Shown here piece by piece: positions 3,787-36,276 of a DNA stretch of 48,858 nt (positions are counted from its first letter, which is position 1; each line of letters starts with the position of its first letter). The DNA is from an uncultured delta proteobacterium (GTDB taxonomy: Bacteria > Desulfobacterota > WTBG01). The notes under the pieces are model-generated. The model saw nothing but the letters and a program-made list of their open reading frames with translations, did no database searches and had not been told where the DNA came from. The position numbers and the translations under genes are program-made. Location: positions 1-48,858 of the forward strand of contig CAVVWZ010000088.1 of NCBI GenBank assembly GCA_963752035.1, in the 5' to 3' direction.

Positions 3787-5033
3787 CTCCTTTTGCCCTT
3801 GGCGCGTTTCTCAGCTGTTTTTTTCGGGGCCGGGGCAACTTTTTTCTCCGCTTTAAGCTCCTTAACTCTATCAAGGATTTTATCTGCAAGCCCTGTTTTC
3901 TCCATACGGGGGAGTGTTTCCACTCTTCCTTCATAGTCAATGAGGGTGACCTCATTGTTGTCTGAGCCAAATCCACCTTCCTTCTGAAGTGCGTGATTGA
4001 CTACAATGAGATCGAGATTTTTTCTGTCCAGTTTTCCTTTAGCCTGAGAAATAAGGTTTTTTGTTTCGGCAGCAAATCCAACCAGGAACCGCTTCCCCTT
4101 ATTTTTTCCAAGTTTGTAAAGGATGTCAGGATTTCTCTCCAGTTCCAGGGTCAGGCTTTTTTGTGCTTTCTTCATCTTTTCATGAGAATACTTTTTAGGG
4201 CGGTAATCTGCCACCGCCGCAGTCTTGATAACGATGGTACAGGACTTGTAGTGTCGTGATACAGCTTTGTCCATATCGAGAGCACTGGTGACAGGGATGG
4301 TGCGGATGTGGGGAGGGGGATTGATTGTTGTAGGACCTGTGACCAGCAGTACTTCTGCGCCTCTTTTTTGAGAAGCGTGTGCCAGGGCATACCCCATTTT
4401 CCCGGAGGAACGATTGGTAAGGAACCTGATGGGATCTACCTGTTCCTGAGTAGGTCCTGCTGTAATCAGGATGTGTTCCCCGTGCAGGTCTTTTTCCGTT
4501 ATAAGCGCTGTGGTTTCTTCAAGGATGTCATCCAGTTCAGCGAGTCTGCCTTTTCCTTCATAACCACAGGCAAGTTCCCCCGTTGCGGGGCCTGAGAAGA
4601 TGAAACCGCGCTCTTTTAATTTTTCTACATTCTGCTGGGTAACGGGATTTTCCCACATCTTGGTGTTCATAGCGGGGGCAATGAGCACCGGGGCGGCTGT
4701 GGATAAGACTACCGACGAGAGGAGGTCATCTGCAATGCCAGCTGCACACTTTGCAATGATGTTTGCTGTTGCAGGTGCAATGATTAAAAGATCTGCCTTA
4801 TCGGCCAGGGCAATGTGGGCAATCTCCGGCTGGTAACTGCTGAAGAGGTCCGTGTGAACAGGGTGAGTGGAGATAGTCTGGAAGGTAAGGGGGGTGACAA
4901 ACTGCTGGGCATTGCTGGTCATTACCACATCGACTTCAGCATTACGCTTGCAGAGTTGCCTGACTAATTCAGCCGCTTTATAGGCAGCGATTCCACCCGT
5001 AATACCCACTACAATCTTTTTTCCTTTAAGCAT
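3783..5033 (-). CDS. coaBC: bifunctional phosphopantothenoylcysteine decarboxylase / phosphopantothenate--cysteine ligase
   Basis: 416 aa. The N-terminal flavoprotein domain (IVVGITGGIAAYKA, PAMNTKMW) is followed by the CoaB ligase domain (ITAGPTQEQVDPIRFLTNRSSGKMG, AAVADYRP). Confidence 0.95.
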   Translation of the reverse strand: MLKGKKIVVGITGGIAAYKAAELVRQLCKRNAEVDVVMTSNAQQFVTPLTFQTISTHPVHTDLFSSYQPEIAHIALADKADLLIIAPATANIIAKCAAGIADDLLSSVVLSTAAPVLIAPAMNTKMWENPVTQQNVEKLKERGFIFSGPATGELACGYEGKGRLAELDDILEETTALITEKDLHGEHILITAGPTQEQVDPIRFLTNRSSGKMGYALAHASQKRGAEVLLVTGPTTINPPPHIRTIPVTSALDMDKAVSRHYKSCTIVIKTAAVADYRPKKYSHEKMKKAQKSLTLELERNPDILYKLGKNKGKRFLVGFAAETKNLISQAKGKLDRKNLDLIVVNHALQKEGGFGSDNNEVTLIDYEGRVETLPRMEKTGLADKILDRVKELKAEKKVAPAPKKTAEKRAKGKRR

Positions 5034-5081
5034 TTTCTTAATTCCTGTTGATTAAGATTATAAAATTCACATTAGTTTCAA

Positions 5082-5248
5082 ACCGCAAAGACGCAAAGTA
5101 CGCAAAGATTTTAAAGAGGTAAATAAACAGCTGTTGACTCCGCTATTCTATACGGGGAATTTCCACGAGTATCCAGGGATTCTTTTCTGTCATCTCTATT
5201 TTAGCTACTATAGGCTTCCTTTGCGTCATCTCTGCAGTCTTTGCGGTG
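5082..5248 (+). repeat. GCAAAG-array inverted-repeat element, copy 1
   Basis: The left end is ACCGCAAAGACGCAAAGTACGCAAAG and the right end is CTTTGCGTCATCTCTGCAGTCTTTGCGGTG, an imperfect reverse complement. The AT-rich core is about 110 bp. It lies between the 5302..6525 gene and coaBC. Confidence 0.8.
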
Positions 5249-5301
5249 TCATTAAATCTTTTTGTATCCGCTAACTCGCATGCTTCAGCTCCATTCTCTT
5301 T

Positions 5302-6525
5302 TTATTCTATTTCTTCTTCCGGTTCCTGGTTTTTTAACATGACTTCCATCTCGATAAGTGGTGGTGTGACGCTTGCAATGTAGACAGTAAAATCCTTGAA
5401 TTGCTTGCGCTCAATCAGCGCAGCAAGTGATGACGTGTCAAGGGGTGATTCCACTTCAATCAAAGCCCCTGTGTCAGAAAGGGTTTTTTGTAACAGATTG
5501 TAAATTTCCGGGATCGCCTTTTTTAAAGCGCTTTTAAAGCGGGAAAAGTCAAGATAATCTGACAGGCCGGAAACACTGAGGGTGCTTGAAGCTATCCCCC
5601 GGTTTTCTTTAACCCATCGCAGAGAAAGTTCTTCCCCGATGGTACGGGCGAGTCTTGATGCTGCCTTCTCAAGTGCAATCTGCTGTGCCGTTATTTCACT
5701 GTCGTCGGTTGCCGGGATATAGCTCTCACTGGTTGCAATTACAGAACCATCGTCTACCTTCAGTGCTTTAGCGACAATATTCGCCTGGACGATTTTTTGG
5801 GAAGGGTTTTCCGTTTCACCTGTCAGTTCAACCTGGGCTTTTCCAACAACGACTATATCTACCTGAAACTGTTTGCCTAACGCCTGAACATCTTCCGGCA
5901 GTATGTCAAGACAACCGTACACTTTCGAGGTAGTGATTTTTTTGATCATAGAGGTATGATCTATCACTTCGAACCCCCTTTTCTGAAGCTCATTCCGTAC
6001 AGTGCTGTCAATGGTTGTCAATTCCTTTTCGGGATCTATGAAGGACCACCAGCAGGTAGAGAAATTTTGATCAAGTTTCTGCTGGGAAACCATAAGGAGG
6101 ATGCGGGGCAATTTCAACTGAGAACCTATGGAGCGGGTGTTTAGCAGGTTGTTTTTTAAGTCTTCCATCGCTACGGTTGCCTGAATGGTGATATGATAGC
6201 GATCACCGAGGGTACTGTCGTAGAGAACTCTGTAGCTCTCAATATAGTCAGCAGTTTTCGTAAAAAGGGTGCGTTTAAGTTCGGCAAACTGTCGGCTAAA
6301 CTGTTCAAATGTCATCAGCCGGATCGCTGCTTTTATGAGAGCCTTCTTCTGGGCGTCTGCAAGTGCATCGTTTCGTGCGCCAAAAACATTATTATTTCGT
6401 ATGGAAGCTATCCCGGTACTTGTAATGGGATCAACTGTAGCCGCGTCTTGTGCACAAACAGGGATGCTGGTAAAAAAAGGAATCATAAGAGATAACATCA
6501 ATAGTAGTACAAGGAATTTCTTCAC
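5302..6525 (-). CDS. secreted protein of unknown function (signal peptide)
   Basis: 407-aa ORF with a GTG start at 6525 behind a GAGGT RBS. The N-terminus MKKFLVLLLMLSLMIPFFTSIPVCAQD is a clear signal peptide. I cannot name a family with confidence. Confidence 0.7.
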   Translation of the reverse strand: MKKFLVLLLMLSLMIPFFTSIPVCAQDAATVDPITSTGIASIRNNNVFGARNDALADAQKKALIKAAIRLMTFEQFSRQFAELKRTLFTKTADYIESYRVLYDSTLGDRYHITIQATVAMEDLKNNLLNTRSIGSQLKLPRILLMVSQQKLDQNFSTCWWSFIDPEKELTTIDSTVRNELQKRGFEVIDHTSMIKKITTSKVYGCLDILPEDVQALGKQFQVDIVVVGKAQVELTGETENPSQKIVQANIVAKALKVDDGSVIATSESYIPATDDSEITAQQIALEKAASRLARTIGEELSLRWVKENRGIASSTLSVSGLSDYLDFSRFKSALKKAIPEIYNLLQKTLSDTGALIEVESPLDTSSLAALIERKQFKDFTVYIASVTPPLIEMEVMLKNQEPEEEIE

Positions 6526-14978: not shown

Positions 14979-15816
14979 TTACAAGACGAAGTTTAAAACG
15001 AATGCTGCGAATACACTTAGAGAAATATTTCTATTTGCAGTGAAGAAGGCGGCATTTACTCTCGTCAGATTTTCTTCGGTGACAATTACATGTTGCCAGA
15101 TGAAAAAGCAGCAGGCAACCAGGAGGCAGAGCCAGTAAAAGAGGTTGGCCTGAACCAGGATTCCTGTAATGCAAAGGATTAAAACTGCTGTAGTGTGGAG
15201 CAGTGCTGAGATGATAAGCGCCTTCTTGAGACCAAACTTCACCGGGATGGAGTACAGCCTGTTGGTTTTGTCAAAGCTGAAATCCTGGCAGGAGTAGATA
15301 ATGTCAAAACCTGCTATCCACAAGAGTACGTATAATCCCATGAGGAGTGCCTTGGGTGAGAAGTGAGGATACACTGCCAGTGCACCTCCTATCGGGGCAC
15401 ACGCCTCTGTCAGGCCGAGATAGAGGTGGGATGTGGAGGAAACCCTCTTCACCAGGGAGTAGGTCACCAGTAAGAACAGTGCCGGGAATGAAAGATAAAA
15501 ACAGAGTGTGTTTAACTGATATGCCGAAAAAATAAATAACAGTGCGAAGGCGATGGAATAGTAGACTACCCTGGACACAGAAATCTCCCCTGATGGCAGC
15601 ATGCGATTTGCTGTCCGGGGGTTCTTTGCGTCGATGTCTTTGTCGAAAATACGGTTGAGACACATGCCCACGGTGCGCGCACTAATCAGAGCGGTTGTGA
15701 CAAAAAACCAGACCGAAAGCGGGGGAGGTTCTTCTGGCAACCAGCAGCACTCCAATGTATGCAAGGGGGAGTGCAAAAACGGACTCCTTTACCCTGATTA
15801 ATTTAAGTAATACCAT
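14979..15816 (-). pseudogene. UbiA-family prenyltransferase of the futalosine cluster, interrupted by one frameshift
   Basis: The ATG at 15816 overlaps the UbiD-like stop by 14 nt. It gives MVLLKLIRVKESVFALPLAYIGVLLVARRTSP. The other frame then continues PLSVWFFVTTALISARTVGMCLNRIFDKDIDAKNPRTANR (the NxxxDxxxD prenyltransferase motif). The length is 838 nt, one more than a multiple of 3. Removing one G from the G5 run at 15721-15725 restores a single frame. Confidence 0.82.
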
Positions 15817-32662: not shown

Positions 32663-32877
32663 AAACCAGCAGAGTGACAAAGGCACAGAAGGCACAAAAG
32701 AGGGAGCAATTCCCACTCCTTAGAGTTTGTCTTAGTGAAACTTCGTGATTTAGTTTTTGATTGTTTGGCATTTGAAATTTGTATGTTTTTCGTACTTTTC
32801 GATGCTATCGTAGTTAGAGTTTTTGAGTTTACTCATTTTAGGCAATTTAGAAATTATTCTTGATAAAGGAGAGGTTT

Positions 32878-34314
32878 ATGAAACAGTGCCGTATTTTTCT
32901 AGTAGTGAGTGTGTTCCTTTTTCTGTCTGTTTTGCTGGTTAGCATCCCTGTGCATGCTTCACTGCTTGATGGTGAGAAGTTTACGCTTTCAGGATTCCTG
33001 AAAAACGCAACTTCCATAAACTCGAGCAGCGCAGACAACATGGATCAATTCTTGAAGATCCGGAATACTGCCCAACTGGAACTGGAGTATCAATTCACGG
33101 ATAATTTCCATTTCTTTACCATTGTGAGGGGTTGGTATGACAGCGCTTATGATGCTGAGAGTAAATGGCGCAAGGGTGACAACCGGAAGAAAATGAGTCG
33201 TGTGAGAGGAACGGACTGGCTGAGAGAGTGTTATGTCGACTACTATTCTGAAACACTGGACATTCGGGTAGGAAAACAGCAGGTGGTCTGGGGCACTGCG
33301 GACGGGGTGAAGATTCTGGATATTATCAACCCAATAGACTATCGTGAATTTAGCCTTGAAATCAACAGGGGACTTGATGCTGATGTTAAAATTCCCCTCT
33401 GGATGACCAAGGTAGAGTATGCTCCCACGGTGAACGGGACACTTCAGCTCCTGATCATTCCTGATTATGAAACAAATTTCCTTGCACCTCCCGGTGCCCC
33501 CTATACGGCCCGGGCAACAAATTCTGGTGATATGCAGCTGGATGTATTGAGAGATTTTGGAGCAGGGGTCAATATTGCAAATAAGAAACCGGGGAGAAGC
33601 CTTGACAACACGAAGATTGCTCTGAGATGGCTGGATGTTATAAAGGGATTTGAGTACACCCTCAATTATTTCCATGGTTACAGCTATGCACCATCACGGT
33701 ATTTCATAGGTATTGAACCTTTTGGGATACCCTTTTTGCCGGGTGCTGAAGCCTACTTTGAGGACAGGTATCCACAGACGGAAACTGTGGGGTTCTCGTT
33801 TTCAAAGGCAATGACCAAGGGGTTCCTGAGAGGATATAACTTCAGGGGTGAATTTGCCTGGGTCCACAACAGTACTTCCGGGTATGGGACGAGAGACAAC
33901 CAGGTTGGGGTGGCAAAGGTTGATCAGTACAACTACGTGCTGGGCATTGATAAGTATTACTGGACCAATTGGCTCTTTAGCTTTCAGTTCATACAATTCT
34001 GTCTGGAGAGAGATACGGAGGATGGATACGATTATATTTCAGGTCCAACCTTCAATACGGTTGATCAGTTTGAGACCATTTTGAGTCTCAAGATTGCGAC
34101 CGATTTCATGCATGAACGGTTAAAACCGGGGATTCTTACCCAGTGGGGTGCCAATAATAACGACTGGTCATTAAACCCCAGGGTGGAATTCGAACTGCGG
34201 GACTACCTGATTCTCACCTGGGGGATGAACGCCTTCTGGGGACCCAGTGACAGCCTGTTTGGATACTTTAGAACCAGGGATTCCATGTACTTGGAGGTGA
34301 AGCTTGGATTTTAA
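32878..34314 (+). CDS. outer-membrane beta-barrel-type protein, DUF1302-like
   Basis: The ATG at 32878 follows an AAGGAGAGG RBS, and there is a signal peptide (MKQCRIFLVVSVFLFLSVLLVSIPVHAS). RECYVDYYSETLDIRVGKQQVVWGTADGVKILDIINPIDYREF matches the remembered DUF1302 signature. The C-terminus is aromatic (LGF). Confidence 0.72.
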   Translation: MKQCRIFLVVSVFLFLSVLLVSIPVHASLLDGEKFTLSGFLKNATSINSSSADNMDQFLKIRNTAQLELEYQFTDNFHFFTIVRGWYDSAYDAESKWRKGDNRKKMSRVRGTDWLRECYVDYYSETLDIRVGKQQVVWGTADGVKILDIINPIDYREFSLEINRGLDADVKIPLWMTKVEYAPTVNGTLQLLIIPDYETNFLAPPGAPYTARATNSGDMQLDVLRDFGAGVNIANKKPGRSLDNTKIALRWLDVIKGFEYTLNYFHGYSYAPSRYFIGIEPFGIPFLPGAEAYFEDRYPQTETVGFSFSKAMTKGFLRGYNFRGEFAWVHNSTSGYGTRDNQVGVAKVDQYNYVLGIDKYYWTNWLFSFQFIQFCLERDTEDGYDYISGPTFNTVDQFETILSLKIATDFMHERLKPGILTQWGANNNDWSLNPRVEFELRDYLILTWGMNAFWGPSDSLFGYFRTRDSMYLEVKLGF

Positions 34315-34359: not shown

Positions 34360-34398
34360 AGAAGGGCCCCGCTTAAATTGGTGGGGCCCTTCTTGTTT
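34360..34398 (+). terminator. Rho-independent terminator hairpin of the 23068-34314 cluster, and target site of the intron
   Basis: An 11-bp GC-rich stem pairs AGAAGGGCCCC (34360-34370) with GGGGCCCTTCT (34383-34393) around a 12-nt loop. A TGTTT tract follows, immediately before the intron 5' GTGCG. Confidence 0.75.
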
Positions 34399-35004
34399 GT
34401 GCGCCCGGCAGGGCGCACCTACTTGGAGGTGCAAGTCCTCTACCGACCCGACAGGGGGAACGGTTAGCTTAACGGCAAGGGTGTCCATCGTGAGGTGGAA
34501 TCTGAAGGAAGCCGCAGGCAAAGCGCTGGCCTGACGAACAGGAATCGTATATGAGGCTGTTACGCTGGATGAGGAGGCAAATATCTCTAAAGTCCAATAC
34601 CTGTACGGAGAGCGTGGCAGTATATACGGCAGGTATAAGCGTGAAGGTGGGTGCGCATTACCCGGGGAGATCTGTCAATCAGCCTTGTGCTACGGTCATC
34701 GAGAGGTGACAGGATAGATTGGCAGAAGTCAGCAGAGGGCATAGTAGGTTCAAGTAATTGAGCTGAAGGCCTGAACCTGGTGCTTATGTATTGGATCGCT
34801 TTTCCGAGTGTTTTGAGCAGATGCCTCGAAAGGGGGCCTAAAGCTGGAAGTAACGGACGGAATCTGTGAGGTAAGGCTGGGCGCTTATAGAACACCGGGC
34901 ACTGAGGTCAATGATAATACATTGCAACAGGAACCGCCGTATACGTGATCCGTACGTACGGTGGTGTGGGAGGACGGAGGGGGTAACCCCTCCTCCTACC
35001 CGAT
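34399..35004 (+). mobile_element. group II intron RNA, class C (IIC), ORF-less (no reverse transcriptase in domain IV)
   Basis: The 5' end is GTGCGCCCGGCA. Long stretches match my memory of the Oceanobacillus IIC ribozyme (GTTAGCTTAACGGCAAGGGTGTCC, GGAATCTGAAGGAAGC, TATGAGGCT, TTACCCGGGGAG, CAGAAGTCAGCAGA). Domain V lies at 34934-34964 (8 bp, 2-nt bulge, 4 bp). Domain VI lies at 34968-35001 with a GTAA tetraloop and a bulged A at 34998, 7 nt from the 3' end, which reads ...CCCGAT. Total length is 606 nt, with no ORF that looks real. Confidence 0.88.
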
Positions 35005-35031
35005 ATGGTTGCATGTGAGGCTAAAATTATT

Positions 35032-36276
35032 TTACGCAGATGCTTTTTCTCCTGCAAGATAGCCGGTAGAGAAAGCCTGCTGGAGGTTATATCCACCGCT
35101 CTTGCCACAGCCATCAATTATTTCTCCGGCAAAATACAATCCGGGTACCACCCGTGACTCCATGGTCTTAGAGTAAATCTCTTTTGTTGCTATGCCCCCG
35201 TTTGTAACCATGGCCTCCTCTACAGAGAGGGAACCTGTTACCGTTAAGGGGAAGAACTTTAATAAGCCTGCAATCAGCAACCTTTCTTTTTTAGTAATTT
35301 GATTTACTCGTTTGCACATTTCGATATTCAGCACCTGCATAAACACAGAAACCAGCCGTTGAGATAAAAATTTTCTTATAACAGTTTTTATCTGGAGATT
35401 CCGCCTCGTGGTACATTCACTCAGCAATTGTGCCTGCAGCTGTTCATGGTTCACCCCGGGAATAAAATCAATGGAAAGCACTAGTTTTTCACTATCTCCC
35501 AATGCAGATACAACCGTTGAGCTTACATCTAAAACTAAAGGCCCTGAAATCCCATAATGGGTAAACAGTAATTCTCCTTTCGGGGAGACAGTTTTTTTAC
35601 TACCACATTTTATGGTAATACAGACATCATTTAGGGAAAGTCCCTGTAATTGTTTGATCCAAGGCTCTTTTATTCTCAAAGGTATAAGTGCCGGTCTCAA
35701 ATCAACAACGGTATGACCCAGTGTTTCGGCAATGCGGAAGCCATCACCTGATGATCCTGTTTTCTTATAGGATACCCCGCCTGTCGCTAAGATAACTTTT
35801 TCGGCGCAGATCATAGTGTTGTTGCCTCGATCTAATGCCAATTGAAATAAGCCATCCTTTCTTTCCAGCTTGACAACACGCCCACTGTATAAGATTTTAA
35901 CTTTATTCTTTACCAGGTATTCCCCTAAGACACGTACCACAGAAAACGCCTTATTGGTAACAGGGAACACCCTTCCCCTATCTTCTGTAGTAAAGTTGAG
36001 TCCTTGTGCTTCAAAAAACTGAATGAGGCTATGATTGCGGAAGGCATAAAACGCGGGCTTTAAAAACATGCCTTGTTTGCCGAAATTTTTTATAAATACC
36101 TCAATGGGGGAGGTATTGGTTATGTTGCACCTCCCGTTGCCGGTAAGCAAAATCTTTTTACCAATAACACCATTTCTTTCAATTACTATTACGTTTTTCT
36201 TAAGCTGGCTCGAGCGTATTGCAGCCATACTGCCTGCTGGACCAGCTCCAACCACGGCAACATCAAAAATATCCAT
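35032..36276 (-). CDS. HI0933-family NAD(P)/FAD-dependent flavoprotein
   Basis: 414 aa. It has DVAVVGAGPAGSMAAI, then LLTGNGRCNITN, and a C-terminal GGYNLQQAFSTG. This is a typical HI0933-like (BaiN-type) layout. Confidence 0.88.
   Translation of the reverse strand: MDIFDVAVVGAGPAGSMAAIRSSQLKKNVIVIERNGVIGKKILLTGNGRCNITNTSPIEVFIKNFGKQGMFLKPAFYAFRNHSLIQFFEAQGLNFTTEDRGRVFPVTNKAFSVVRVLGEYLVKNKVKILYSGRVVKLERKDGLFQLALDRGNNTMICAEKVILATGGVSYKKTGSSGDGFRIAETLGHTVVDLRPALIPLRIKEPWIKQLQGLSLNDVCITIKCGSKKTVSPKGELLFTHYGISGPLVLDVSSTVVSALGDSEKLVLSIDFIPGVNHEQLQAQLLSECTTRRNLQIKTVIRKFLSQRLVSVFMQVLNIEMCKRVNQITKKERLLIAGLLKFFPLTVTGSLSVEEAMVTNGGIATKEIYSKTMESRVVPGLYFAGEIIDGCGKSGGYNLQQAFSTGYLAGEKASA

Follow-up and report, generated by a model that had tools for sequence, protein, structure and literature searches.

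The window analysed here (the whole 48,858-nt stretch of DNA, a contig of an uncultured delta proteobacterium) belongs to a genome bin of 1.93 Mb in 102 contigs that is 69% complete. A cluster of plus-strand genes ends in a gene for a DUF1302-family outer-membrane-type protein, which is followed by an intrinsic-terminator-like hairpin, a T-rich tail, a group II intron of 606 nt and a convergent gene for an HI0933-like flavoprotein (Table 1). The stem of the hairpin contains 11 Watson-Crick pairs, or 14 when G-U pairs and an extension are counted, and the gap between hairpin and intron is 5 nt (TGTTT). The exon sequences that splicing would join at 34398/35005 are ...CTTCTTGTTT on the 5' side and ATGGTTGC on the 3' side, and the 3' end of the intron at 35004 reads ...CCUACCCGAU. 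The intron is sense-oriented between the two convergent genes and interrupts no gene; since nothing is disrupted at this locus, the host has no need of its splicing. Two antisense open reading frames that overlap it (34587..34895 and 34908..35117), already described as non-coding-looking, had no Pfam match.

Table 1. Genes, exon elements and intron domains at the locus, in coordinates of the window
Feature	Position	Strand	Evidence or remark
DUF1302-family outer-membrane-type protein gene, last of the plus-strand cluster	32860-34314	+	Pfam PF06980, E 3.6e-21
Intrinsic-terminator-like hairpin AGAAGGGCCCC...GGGGCCCTTCT	34360-34393	+	Terminator scan and sequence
T-rich tail TGTTT; IBS1 = TTT at 34396-34398	34394-34398	+	Pairs with EBS1 AAA
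Group II intron, 606 nt	34399-35004	+	Sequence read; Rfam
Domain I, 263 nt	34404-34666	+	RF02001, 149.6 bits; consensus fold
EBS1 hairpin GAGGCAAAUAUCUC; EBS1 = AAA at 34579-34581	34574-34587	+	Exon/loop covariation
Domain II, 64 nt	34667-34730	+	Fold
Domain III, terminal GUAA loop, non-palindromic	34737-34772	+	RF01998, 66.5 bits; fold
Domain IV, 156 nt, without ORF	34776-34931	+	Fold
Domain IV hairpin, 5-bp stem, CGGAA loop	34853-34867	+	Candidate RT docking site
Domain V, CGC triad and 2-nt AC bulge	34933-34965	+	RF00029 alignment; fold
Domain VI, GUAA loop, bulged branch-point A 34998 (position -7)	34968-35001	+	RF00029; fold
First 3' exon base A, presumed IBS3	35005	+	A in all three full ORF-less copies
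HI0933-like flavoprotein gene, convergent, downstream	35032-36276	-	Pfam PF03486, E 1.7e-78

Identity and boundaries of the intron

The intron begins with GTGCG and ends with ...CCCGAT. When the whole window was searched with Rfam, three matches reached the gathering level, each on the plus strand and each within 34399-35004: RF02001 (group-II-D1D4-3) at 34484-34655 over the full model (149.6 bits, E 2.3e-31; gathering cut-off 32 bits), RF01998 (group-II-D1D4-1) at 34691-34771 (66.5 bits; cut-off 35 bits) and RF00029 (Intron_gpII, domains V/VI) at 34932-35004 (41.1 bits; cut-off 40 bits). The ends were set by aligning copies from differing flanks. A single-sequence fold of the intron gave a minimum free energy of -240 kcal/mol (z = -6.3 against shuffled sequences) and six top-level helices. 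The element thus has what is expected of a group II intron, namely a GUGYG 5' end, an AY 3' end, a six-domain fold and a bulged A in domain VI within 7-8 nt of the 3' end. In a consensus fold of domains I to III built from eight sequences, compensatory changes were found at 52 of the 113 pairs.

The preliminary description, made from the letters of the window, had called this segment an ORF-less class C group II intron inserted behind a terminator hairpin, and had named Rfam models of the D1D4 region and of domains V/VI, as well as folding into six domains, as checks. Models of both kinds matched above their gathering scores, so that the lack of a domain V/VI match, which had been named as evidence against an intron, was not encountered, and the six helices were obtained. 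The canonical domain V with a 2-nt bulge was seen again, as was domain VI with its GUAA tetraloop and a bulged adenosine 7 nt from the GAT end. Two details had to be corrected: domain IV, given as about 70 nt, is 156 nt long, and domains I and II, thought to be enlarged, are free of extra insertions in an alignment with ribozymes from full-length relatives.

It might be argued that the segment resembles an intron by chance, or that it is an assembly chimera, in that the RF00029 score barely exceeds its gathering score; nothing else speaks for this. However, the RF02001 match has an E value of 2e-31, a 606-nt unit with identical ends occurs in independent contigs and plasmids, and covariation in the consensus fold is extensive. 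This explanation is therefore extremely improbable and was rejected, and the observation made in the window is confirmed as real, well beyond chance.

Domain V begins with CCGCCGUAU..., and its CGC triad, read off the RF00029 alignment, is a known variant of the catalytic triad (PMC12350094). A G is present at intron position -3, as is typical in IIC introns, and the basal helix of domain VI consists of 3 bp, or of 4 bp with a U-G pair; a G at -3 and a longer basal domain VI helix promote branching, and in vitro splicing of IIC introns is mostly hydrolytic (PMC4748821). Read-through transcripts of the locus would be expected to undergo self-splicing, with hydrolysis as the main route, like other IIC introns.

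Class C assignment and recognition of the target

Relatives were gathered by searching 60 related genomes with the intron. The nearest full-length relative, G007:C193, has 88% identity to the window copy across intron positions 1-381 (domains I to III), after which it continues into an ORF, the product of which matches the GsI-IIC reverse transcriptase (RT; 6AR1) with an E value of 8.7e-104 and the RTs of Eubacterium and Roseburia IIC introns with about 1e-79. In domains V/VI, identity is 96-97% with full-length introns of two other genomes (G006 and G020), in both of which the RT stop codon abuts domain V. Because the nearest full-length relative encodes a GsI-IIC-like RT, the intron is placed in class IIC.

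The target supports this class as well. The 5' ends of 21 members of the clade were compiled, and nearly all of them lie directly after a hairpin and T-run; this placement was found for the window copy, for two full-length ORF-less copies on metagenome contigs (L042 and L043), for a relic on contig C65 of the source genome and for more than 12 relatives, and at least five copies of the ORF-less lineage are positioned in this way. In addition, IBS1 (the last three exon bases) covaries with loop positions 3-5 of a domain I hairpin. Six covarying IBS1/EBS1 combinations were observed across the clade: UUU/AAA (window, L043 and G050), CUU/AAG (G007), GUU/AAU (G018), AUG/CAU (G020), GUG/CAC (G024) and UAC/GUA (G029). 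In the window copy the 3-bp pairing is perfect. It has been reported that IIC introns recognise their 5' exon by a short EBS1-IBS1 pairing together with a stem-loop (PMC8643678). The class C claim of the preliminary description is borne out by the RT of the relative, the hairpin and T-run target and the EBS1/IBS1 covariation, and its placement of the intron just behind a terminator hairpin by the positive terminator scan at 34360-34393. An IIC ribonucleoprotein reads the terminator stem-loop and, through EBS1 (AAA), the 3-bp IBS1 (TTT), and it then reverse-splices in.

An integron context, which would place the intron among the IIC-attC introns, was looked for around it and was not found. Instead of an attC site, the intron follows a G+C-rich hairpin and T-run located between convergent housekeeping-type genes. 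A search for an empty insertion site, with the joined flanks against 11 genomes of the family, was uninformative; the only flank match was the HI0933-like gene in G006, where its neighbours are different.

The ORF-less lineage and its domain IV

No ORF of at least 60 aa is present on the sense strand of the intron, only stubs of 45-52 aa, none with a Pfam match, and a tblastn search of domain IV with N- and C-terminal pieces of the RT gave a best E value of 0.35. The intron therefore lacks an ORF, as had been proposed, and no remnant of one is detectable in domain IV. A recent deletion of the ORF in place was considered and is unsupported: there is no RT remnant, and the 27-codon ATG frame of the window copy is broken by stop codons in L042 and L043.

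Public collections were scanned with an exact 29-mer of domain IV, which hit a single genome record (G005) as well as three metagenome contigs. L042 (606 nt, 97.9% identical) is located behind the hairpin AAGGCAGAGTC...GGCTCTGCCTT followed by GTTTTCTT, and L043 (606 nt, 87% identical) behind AAATGGCGGACA...TGTCCGCCATTT followed by TTTTATTTT; the flanks of the two are unrelated and their terminators differ from that of the window. L044 carries a 100% identical copy that has been disrupted, a Mutator-type IS being fused to intron position 299. This IS is 99.6% identical to C63:128-1238 of the source genome, and the L044 copy is from the same or a near-identical population. The copy in G005 is 5'-truncated and is retained from domain III onward. 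In the source genome itself, the C65 relic (15562-15712) lies behind another terminator and consists of the first 107 nt joined to about 50 nt of domain IV at a GGAATC repeat, domains V and VI being missing; the search for further ORF-less copies behind terminators that had been suggested was thus successful. The same domain IV was found in two other families of the phylum, in G365, where the copy is ended by a contig edge, and in G125, where it is decayed. Altogether, decayed or cut copies were seen in the source and three other Thermodesulfobacteriota genomes (G005, G125 and G365). A plasmid collection contained eight records with unannotated elements of 590-615 nt, about 70% identical over 96% of the query, the carriers including Rhizobium ruizarguesonis p4, Sinorhizobium fredii NGR234, Aeromonas IncP plasmids and Pseudomonas alcaligenes. 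The lineage ranges over at least three bacterial classes and includes conjugative plasmids. Since the same 606-nt ORF-less form occurs in different flanks, it represents one widespread lineage that has moved repeatedly, and the 98%-identical copy at another site indicates that movement was recent.

We then compared the window copy with its relatives for signs of structural constraint after loss of the ORF. Between the window copy and L043, 36 of the 192 predicted pairs differ; pairing is kept in 29 of these 36, in 20 cases by a change in each partner base, and the stem of domain II is fully compensated. The window copy has no private changes at the columns of domains I to III that are invariant in the seven other sequences, and its RF02001 score (149.6 bits) falls within the range of full-length RT-encoding relatives (146-153). 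Given the retained pairing, the lack of private changes and the full RF02001 score, the intron looks catalytically intact. Taken together, the above results establish the identity, class and boundaries of the intron, its target rule and guide pairing, its multi-site distribution and its structural conservation.

Identity between the window copy and L043 is uneven along the element: 84% in domain I, 60% in domain II, 92.5% in domain III, 96% in domain IV and 97% in domains V/VI. Compared with the Rhizobium/Sinorhizobium plasmid copies, domain IV is 78-86% identical and the entire element about 71%, and domain IV is the best-conserved part across phyla. This mosaic might stem from tighter constraint on domain IV or, just as well, from recombination or template switching with other introns. 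A consensus fold of domain IV from six sequences gave a long interrupted helix of 36 pairs, with compensatory changes at 6 of them and few broken pairs. A scan of domain IV against Rfam at a permissive threshold returned noise only. The possibility that domain IV is a duplicate of domain I was rejected, because the two share only 8-mers such as GGAATCTG. The GGAATCTG repeat does account for the deletion junction of the C65 relic.

Within domain IV, attention was drawn to a hairpin with a CGGAA loop. The same loop, on covarying stems, precedes the RT start codon within domain IV of three full-length introns (L011, L016 and L017), and it is also present in the ORF-less copies of G365, Rhizobium and Aeromonas. 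The stems are ACGGA/UCUGU in the window, GAGAG/CUCUC in L011, GCAGA/UCUGC in L016, CUGGA/UCCGG in L017, GCGGA/UCCGC in G365, GCGGG/CCCGC in Rhizobium and GGAGU/ACUCC in Aeromonas. By chance, only about three such hairpins would be expected in all of the scanned DNA, and the number of unrelated ones observed was three. The primary RT-binding site of group II introns is domain IVa, as established for LtrA; for this reason the CGGAA hairpin, judged by its position and conservation, is the best candidate for the feature by which an RT recognises the ORF-less RNA. An RT acting in trans would probably dock on this hairpin, which is common to both forms of the intron.

Mobility of the lineage and its relation to known introns

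Bacterial ORF-less introns are typically found beside a close RT-encoding relative (PMC4424553, PMC3245105), a pattern that was not seen in the assemblies examined. In the source genome (69% complete), neither PF00078 nor tblastn detected an IIC-type RT, and no full-length IIC copy with an RT ORF, which the preliminary description had suggested looking for, occurs in the assembled 69%. Only two RTs turned up in this genome, on C15 and C89, both of them parts of unrelated group II introns (33-37% identity): the C15 intron lies directly behind a 5S rRNA gene and has an RF02005-type ribozyme, and the C89 RT is at a contig edge. In G005, too, the sole RT is a distant one, and a search of G365 (100% complete by marker genes) for RVT_1 gave no match. 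The absence of an RT is weak evidence, because these metagenome bins are fragmented and multi-copy elements are often lost from them. The G365 copy itself ends at a contig edge.

As the intron encodes no protein, its copying most likely proceeds through an RT acting in trans, and splicing and mobilisation in trans are possible for ORF-less bacterial introns (PMC4424553, PMC8643678). Of the three options left by the preliminary description (a protein supplied in trans, a fossil, or self-splicing), the first is favoured for the lineage as a whole, since a lineage that kept moving used an RT in trans. We consider it very probable that this is an intact class C group II intron that is non-autonomous and was probably copied by an RT in trans, and a non-autonomous retroelement of this kind is the most likely reading of the sequences. 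A single ORF-less lineage, defined by the common 156-nt domain IV, has been inserted behind various terminators in various hosts, and its copying was most likely carried out by the RT/maturase of a related full-length IIC intron. The present mobility of the window copy would hinge on an RT encoded outside the assembled 69% of the genome.

It is possible, if somewhat doubtful, that the window copy is instead an immobile fossil, which arrived once by means of an RT since lost, persists only through being harmless behind the terminator and is decaying slowly. The failure to find an IIC RT in the genome is consistent with this, and dead copies are common: the second copy on C65 is a deleted stump, the identical copy in the near-identical population (L044) has been broken by an IS, and those of G005 and G125 are truncated or deleted. 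However, a fossil would hardly be expected to be free of private substitutions at conserved columns and to score like full-length introns; the 98%-identical copy at a different site also speaks against it, and the genome is only 69% complete.

Hydrolytic endonucleolytic ribozymes (HYERs), RNA chains of which are available as PDB 8K0P and 8K0S, suggest another explanation. The intron could be a stand-alone ribozyme of this type, kept for an RNA-only activity (guided hydrolytic cleavage of RNA or ssDNA) or using unrelated RTs, with domain IV acting as a module for structure or function and not as a dock for the RT. Hydrolytic endonuclease activity has been shown for ORF-less IIC introns (PMC12990946, citing Liu et al. 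2024). The strong conservation of domain IV (96% against 60-84% within the lineage, 78-86% against about 71% to Rhizobiaceae plasmids), the spread over at least three classes and conjugative plasmids, and host genomes without a cognate RT are in line with such a role. Nevertheless, every copy occupies an IIC retroelement site with a matching IBS1, which needs reverse splicing and reverse transcription; there are many decayed copies, as with selfish DNA, and no conserved neighbourhood hints at a host function, while RT genes can drop out of bins. We therefore regard this explanation as very unlikely for the intron. A broader proposal for the lineage is unlikely too, though less so: the ORF-less form may be an RNA element, SINE-like or stand-alone, that is long-lived and spreads horizontally and to which domain IV is essential, either as a universal dock for heterologous RTs or for HYER-type RNA-only activity. 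If so, persistence would be possible without a cognate IIC RT, for example in G365.

The favoured trans-copied retroelement can be compared with several known systems. With the ORF-containing IIC introns B.h.I1, O.i.I1 and GsI-IIC it shares the ribozyme architecture, the CGC triad of domain V and the 3-bp EBS1-IBS1 pairing, as well as sense insertion a few nucleotides past a terminator hairpin (Robart et al. 2007, cited in PMC8643678). In contrast to these, it has no RT/maturase ORF, and its domain IV is non-coding, without a detectable ORF remnant. Bacterial ORF-less group II introns have long been deemed rare (PMC4424553), and Thermosynechococcus provides well-studied cases of ORF-less IIB1 introns mobilised in trans (PMC2882425, PMC8643678). 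The IIB1 introns of Thermosynechococcus elongatus, the Trichodesmium dnaN introns and the present element are all non-autonomous, keep the ribozyme and exon pairings and spread, in the present case probably, by an RT made elsewhere (PMC2882425, PMC8643678, PMC12584367). Those introns, however, are of class IIB/CL with a close RT-encoding intron in the same genome, whereas the present element is of class IIC, with no cognate RT seen in the assemblies. C.te.I1 of Clostridium tetani is ORF-less in a genome without a related RT, like the G365 copy (PMC4424553, PMC4024640), but it is intragenic and gives coding mRNAs by alternative splicing, whereas the element of the window lies between genes and its lineage occupies several sites.

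As a natural case of a non-autonomous IIC intron the element is a clean one, with enough relatives for its rules to be read from sequence: the hairpin and T-run as target, covariation between the exon and a 3-bp guide, and structural constraint on the ribozyme after loss of the RT. Bins of sulfate-reducer type and rhizobial and IncP plasmids all keep its domain IV module, and the CGGAA hairpin shared with RT-encoding relatives offers a testable candidate for how gene-less IIC introns remain recognisable to an RT. Such introns might also provide new compact scaffolds for HYER-type ribozyme work.

ORF-less IIC introns have already been described as HYERs (Liu et al. Science 2024, 10.1126/science.adh4859; via bioRxiv 10.1101/2024.08.31.610620, PMC12990946), so the novelty is modest: the element adds a well-documented member and changes nothing known. 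What it adds to the HYERs is evidence of transposition to several terminators, a cross-phylum domain IV module and a first record in Thermodesulfobacteriota bins. By description, both are IIC ribozymes of about 600 nt without an intron-encoded protein, and both use short EBS guide recognition. With a GUAA loop in domain III in place of a palindrome, the element resembles the monomeric HYERs (2, 3, 4 and 6), unlike the dimeric HYER1 and HYER5; by this analogy the intron, if HYER-like in behaviour, would be of the monomeric type.

Copies of the intron: mosaic identity, disrupted and relic forms

The ORF-less IIC intron of the window was compared by domain with the 606-nt copy on a metagenome contig (L043, 87% identical overall). 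It can be seen that identity is 84% in domain I (D1), falls to 60% in D2 and rises to 92–97% in D3 to D6, a mosaic profile. From this sequence pattern, the 5' half of one copy, either the window's or that of L043, may derive from another intron parent, by recombination or by template switching of the reverse transcriptase (RT).

On a second metagenome contig (L044), a copy 100% identical to the window's is interrupted at position 298/299 by an insertion sequence (IS) of 1.1 kb. This IS is bounded by terminal inverted repeats, encodes a Mutator/IS256-like transposase and is 99.6% identical to its counterpart in the window's own genome bin (G000). The source population, carrying an IS-disrupted intron copy, is thus present in that metagenome.

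In addition, a dead relic of the same intron was observed in G000 behind a different terminator hairpin (GAGCAGGGGC...GTCCCTGCTT followed by TTCGTTT). In it, a domain IV piece of about 50 nt follows directly on the first 107 nt of the intron, with a GGAATC repeat at the junction; D5 and D6 are both absent.

Coordinates of the intron under study and of related introns and other features
Feature	Location	Locus, counterpart or model
ORF-less IIC intron	window 34399-35004 (+)	
Relic	G000 C65:15562-15712	L006 3563-3713
Intron copy with IS	L044 (Ga0070722_10027106) 481-1898	G000 C63:128-1238
Second group II intron, ribozyme	G000 C15, outside window	L005 ~4500-6482; RF02005 D1D4-6 + RF00029
Third group II intron	G000 C89:1-1500, outside window	
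ORF-less sublineage	G029:C7	L037 1110-1772 (-)
ORF-less sublineage	G033:C13	L023
Full-length relative	G006:C287 and C135	L047, L048
ORF-less IIC intron, plasmid	NZ_AP024949.1 15393-16006	L068 2501-3114
c-di-GMP-I riboswitch	G125:C155	L058 2380-2464 (-)

Related introns and loss of the RT

A separate ORF-less IIC sublineage, with the 5' sequence GTGTGCCCGGCATGGGCG and lengths of 663 and about 700 nt, was found in two genomes, G029 and G033, of the same bacterial class, here too with hairpins upstream. The clade has therefore lost the RT repeatedly.

Among full-length relatives, the one in genome G006 is closest in D1 (96%) and in D5/D6 (97%). It is broken at about intron position 217 by DNA carrying a large serine recombinase gene on the opposite strand.

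Aeromonas caviae plasmid pKAM345_1 carries, within its IncP backbone, an unannotated ORF-less IIC intron of 614 nt. The genes on either side of it encode ParB/KorB and a DNA-binding protein, the latter gene being upstream of kfrB and kfrC. Several IncP-type plasmids of Aeromonas and Pseudomonas contain the same element.

Other group II introns and a nearby riboswitch

G000 carries a second group II intron, unrelated to that of the window, about 20–90 nt past the 5S rRNA gene of an rrn operon. Its intact RT ORF (436 aa, RVT_1) shows only 35–37% identity to IIC RTs. The RT ORF of a third, at a contig edge, has a chloroplast-like-looking N-terminus and extends past the contig end; since the assembly breaks within this intron, it may be multi-copy.

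In genome G125, a decayed ORF-less intron copy and a c-di-GMP-I riboswitch (63.9 bits) are separated by about 600 nt, a proximity that is probably coincidental.
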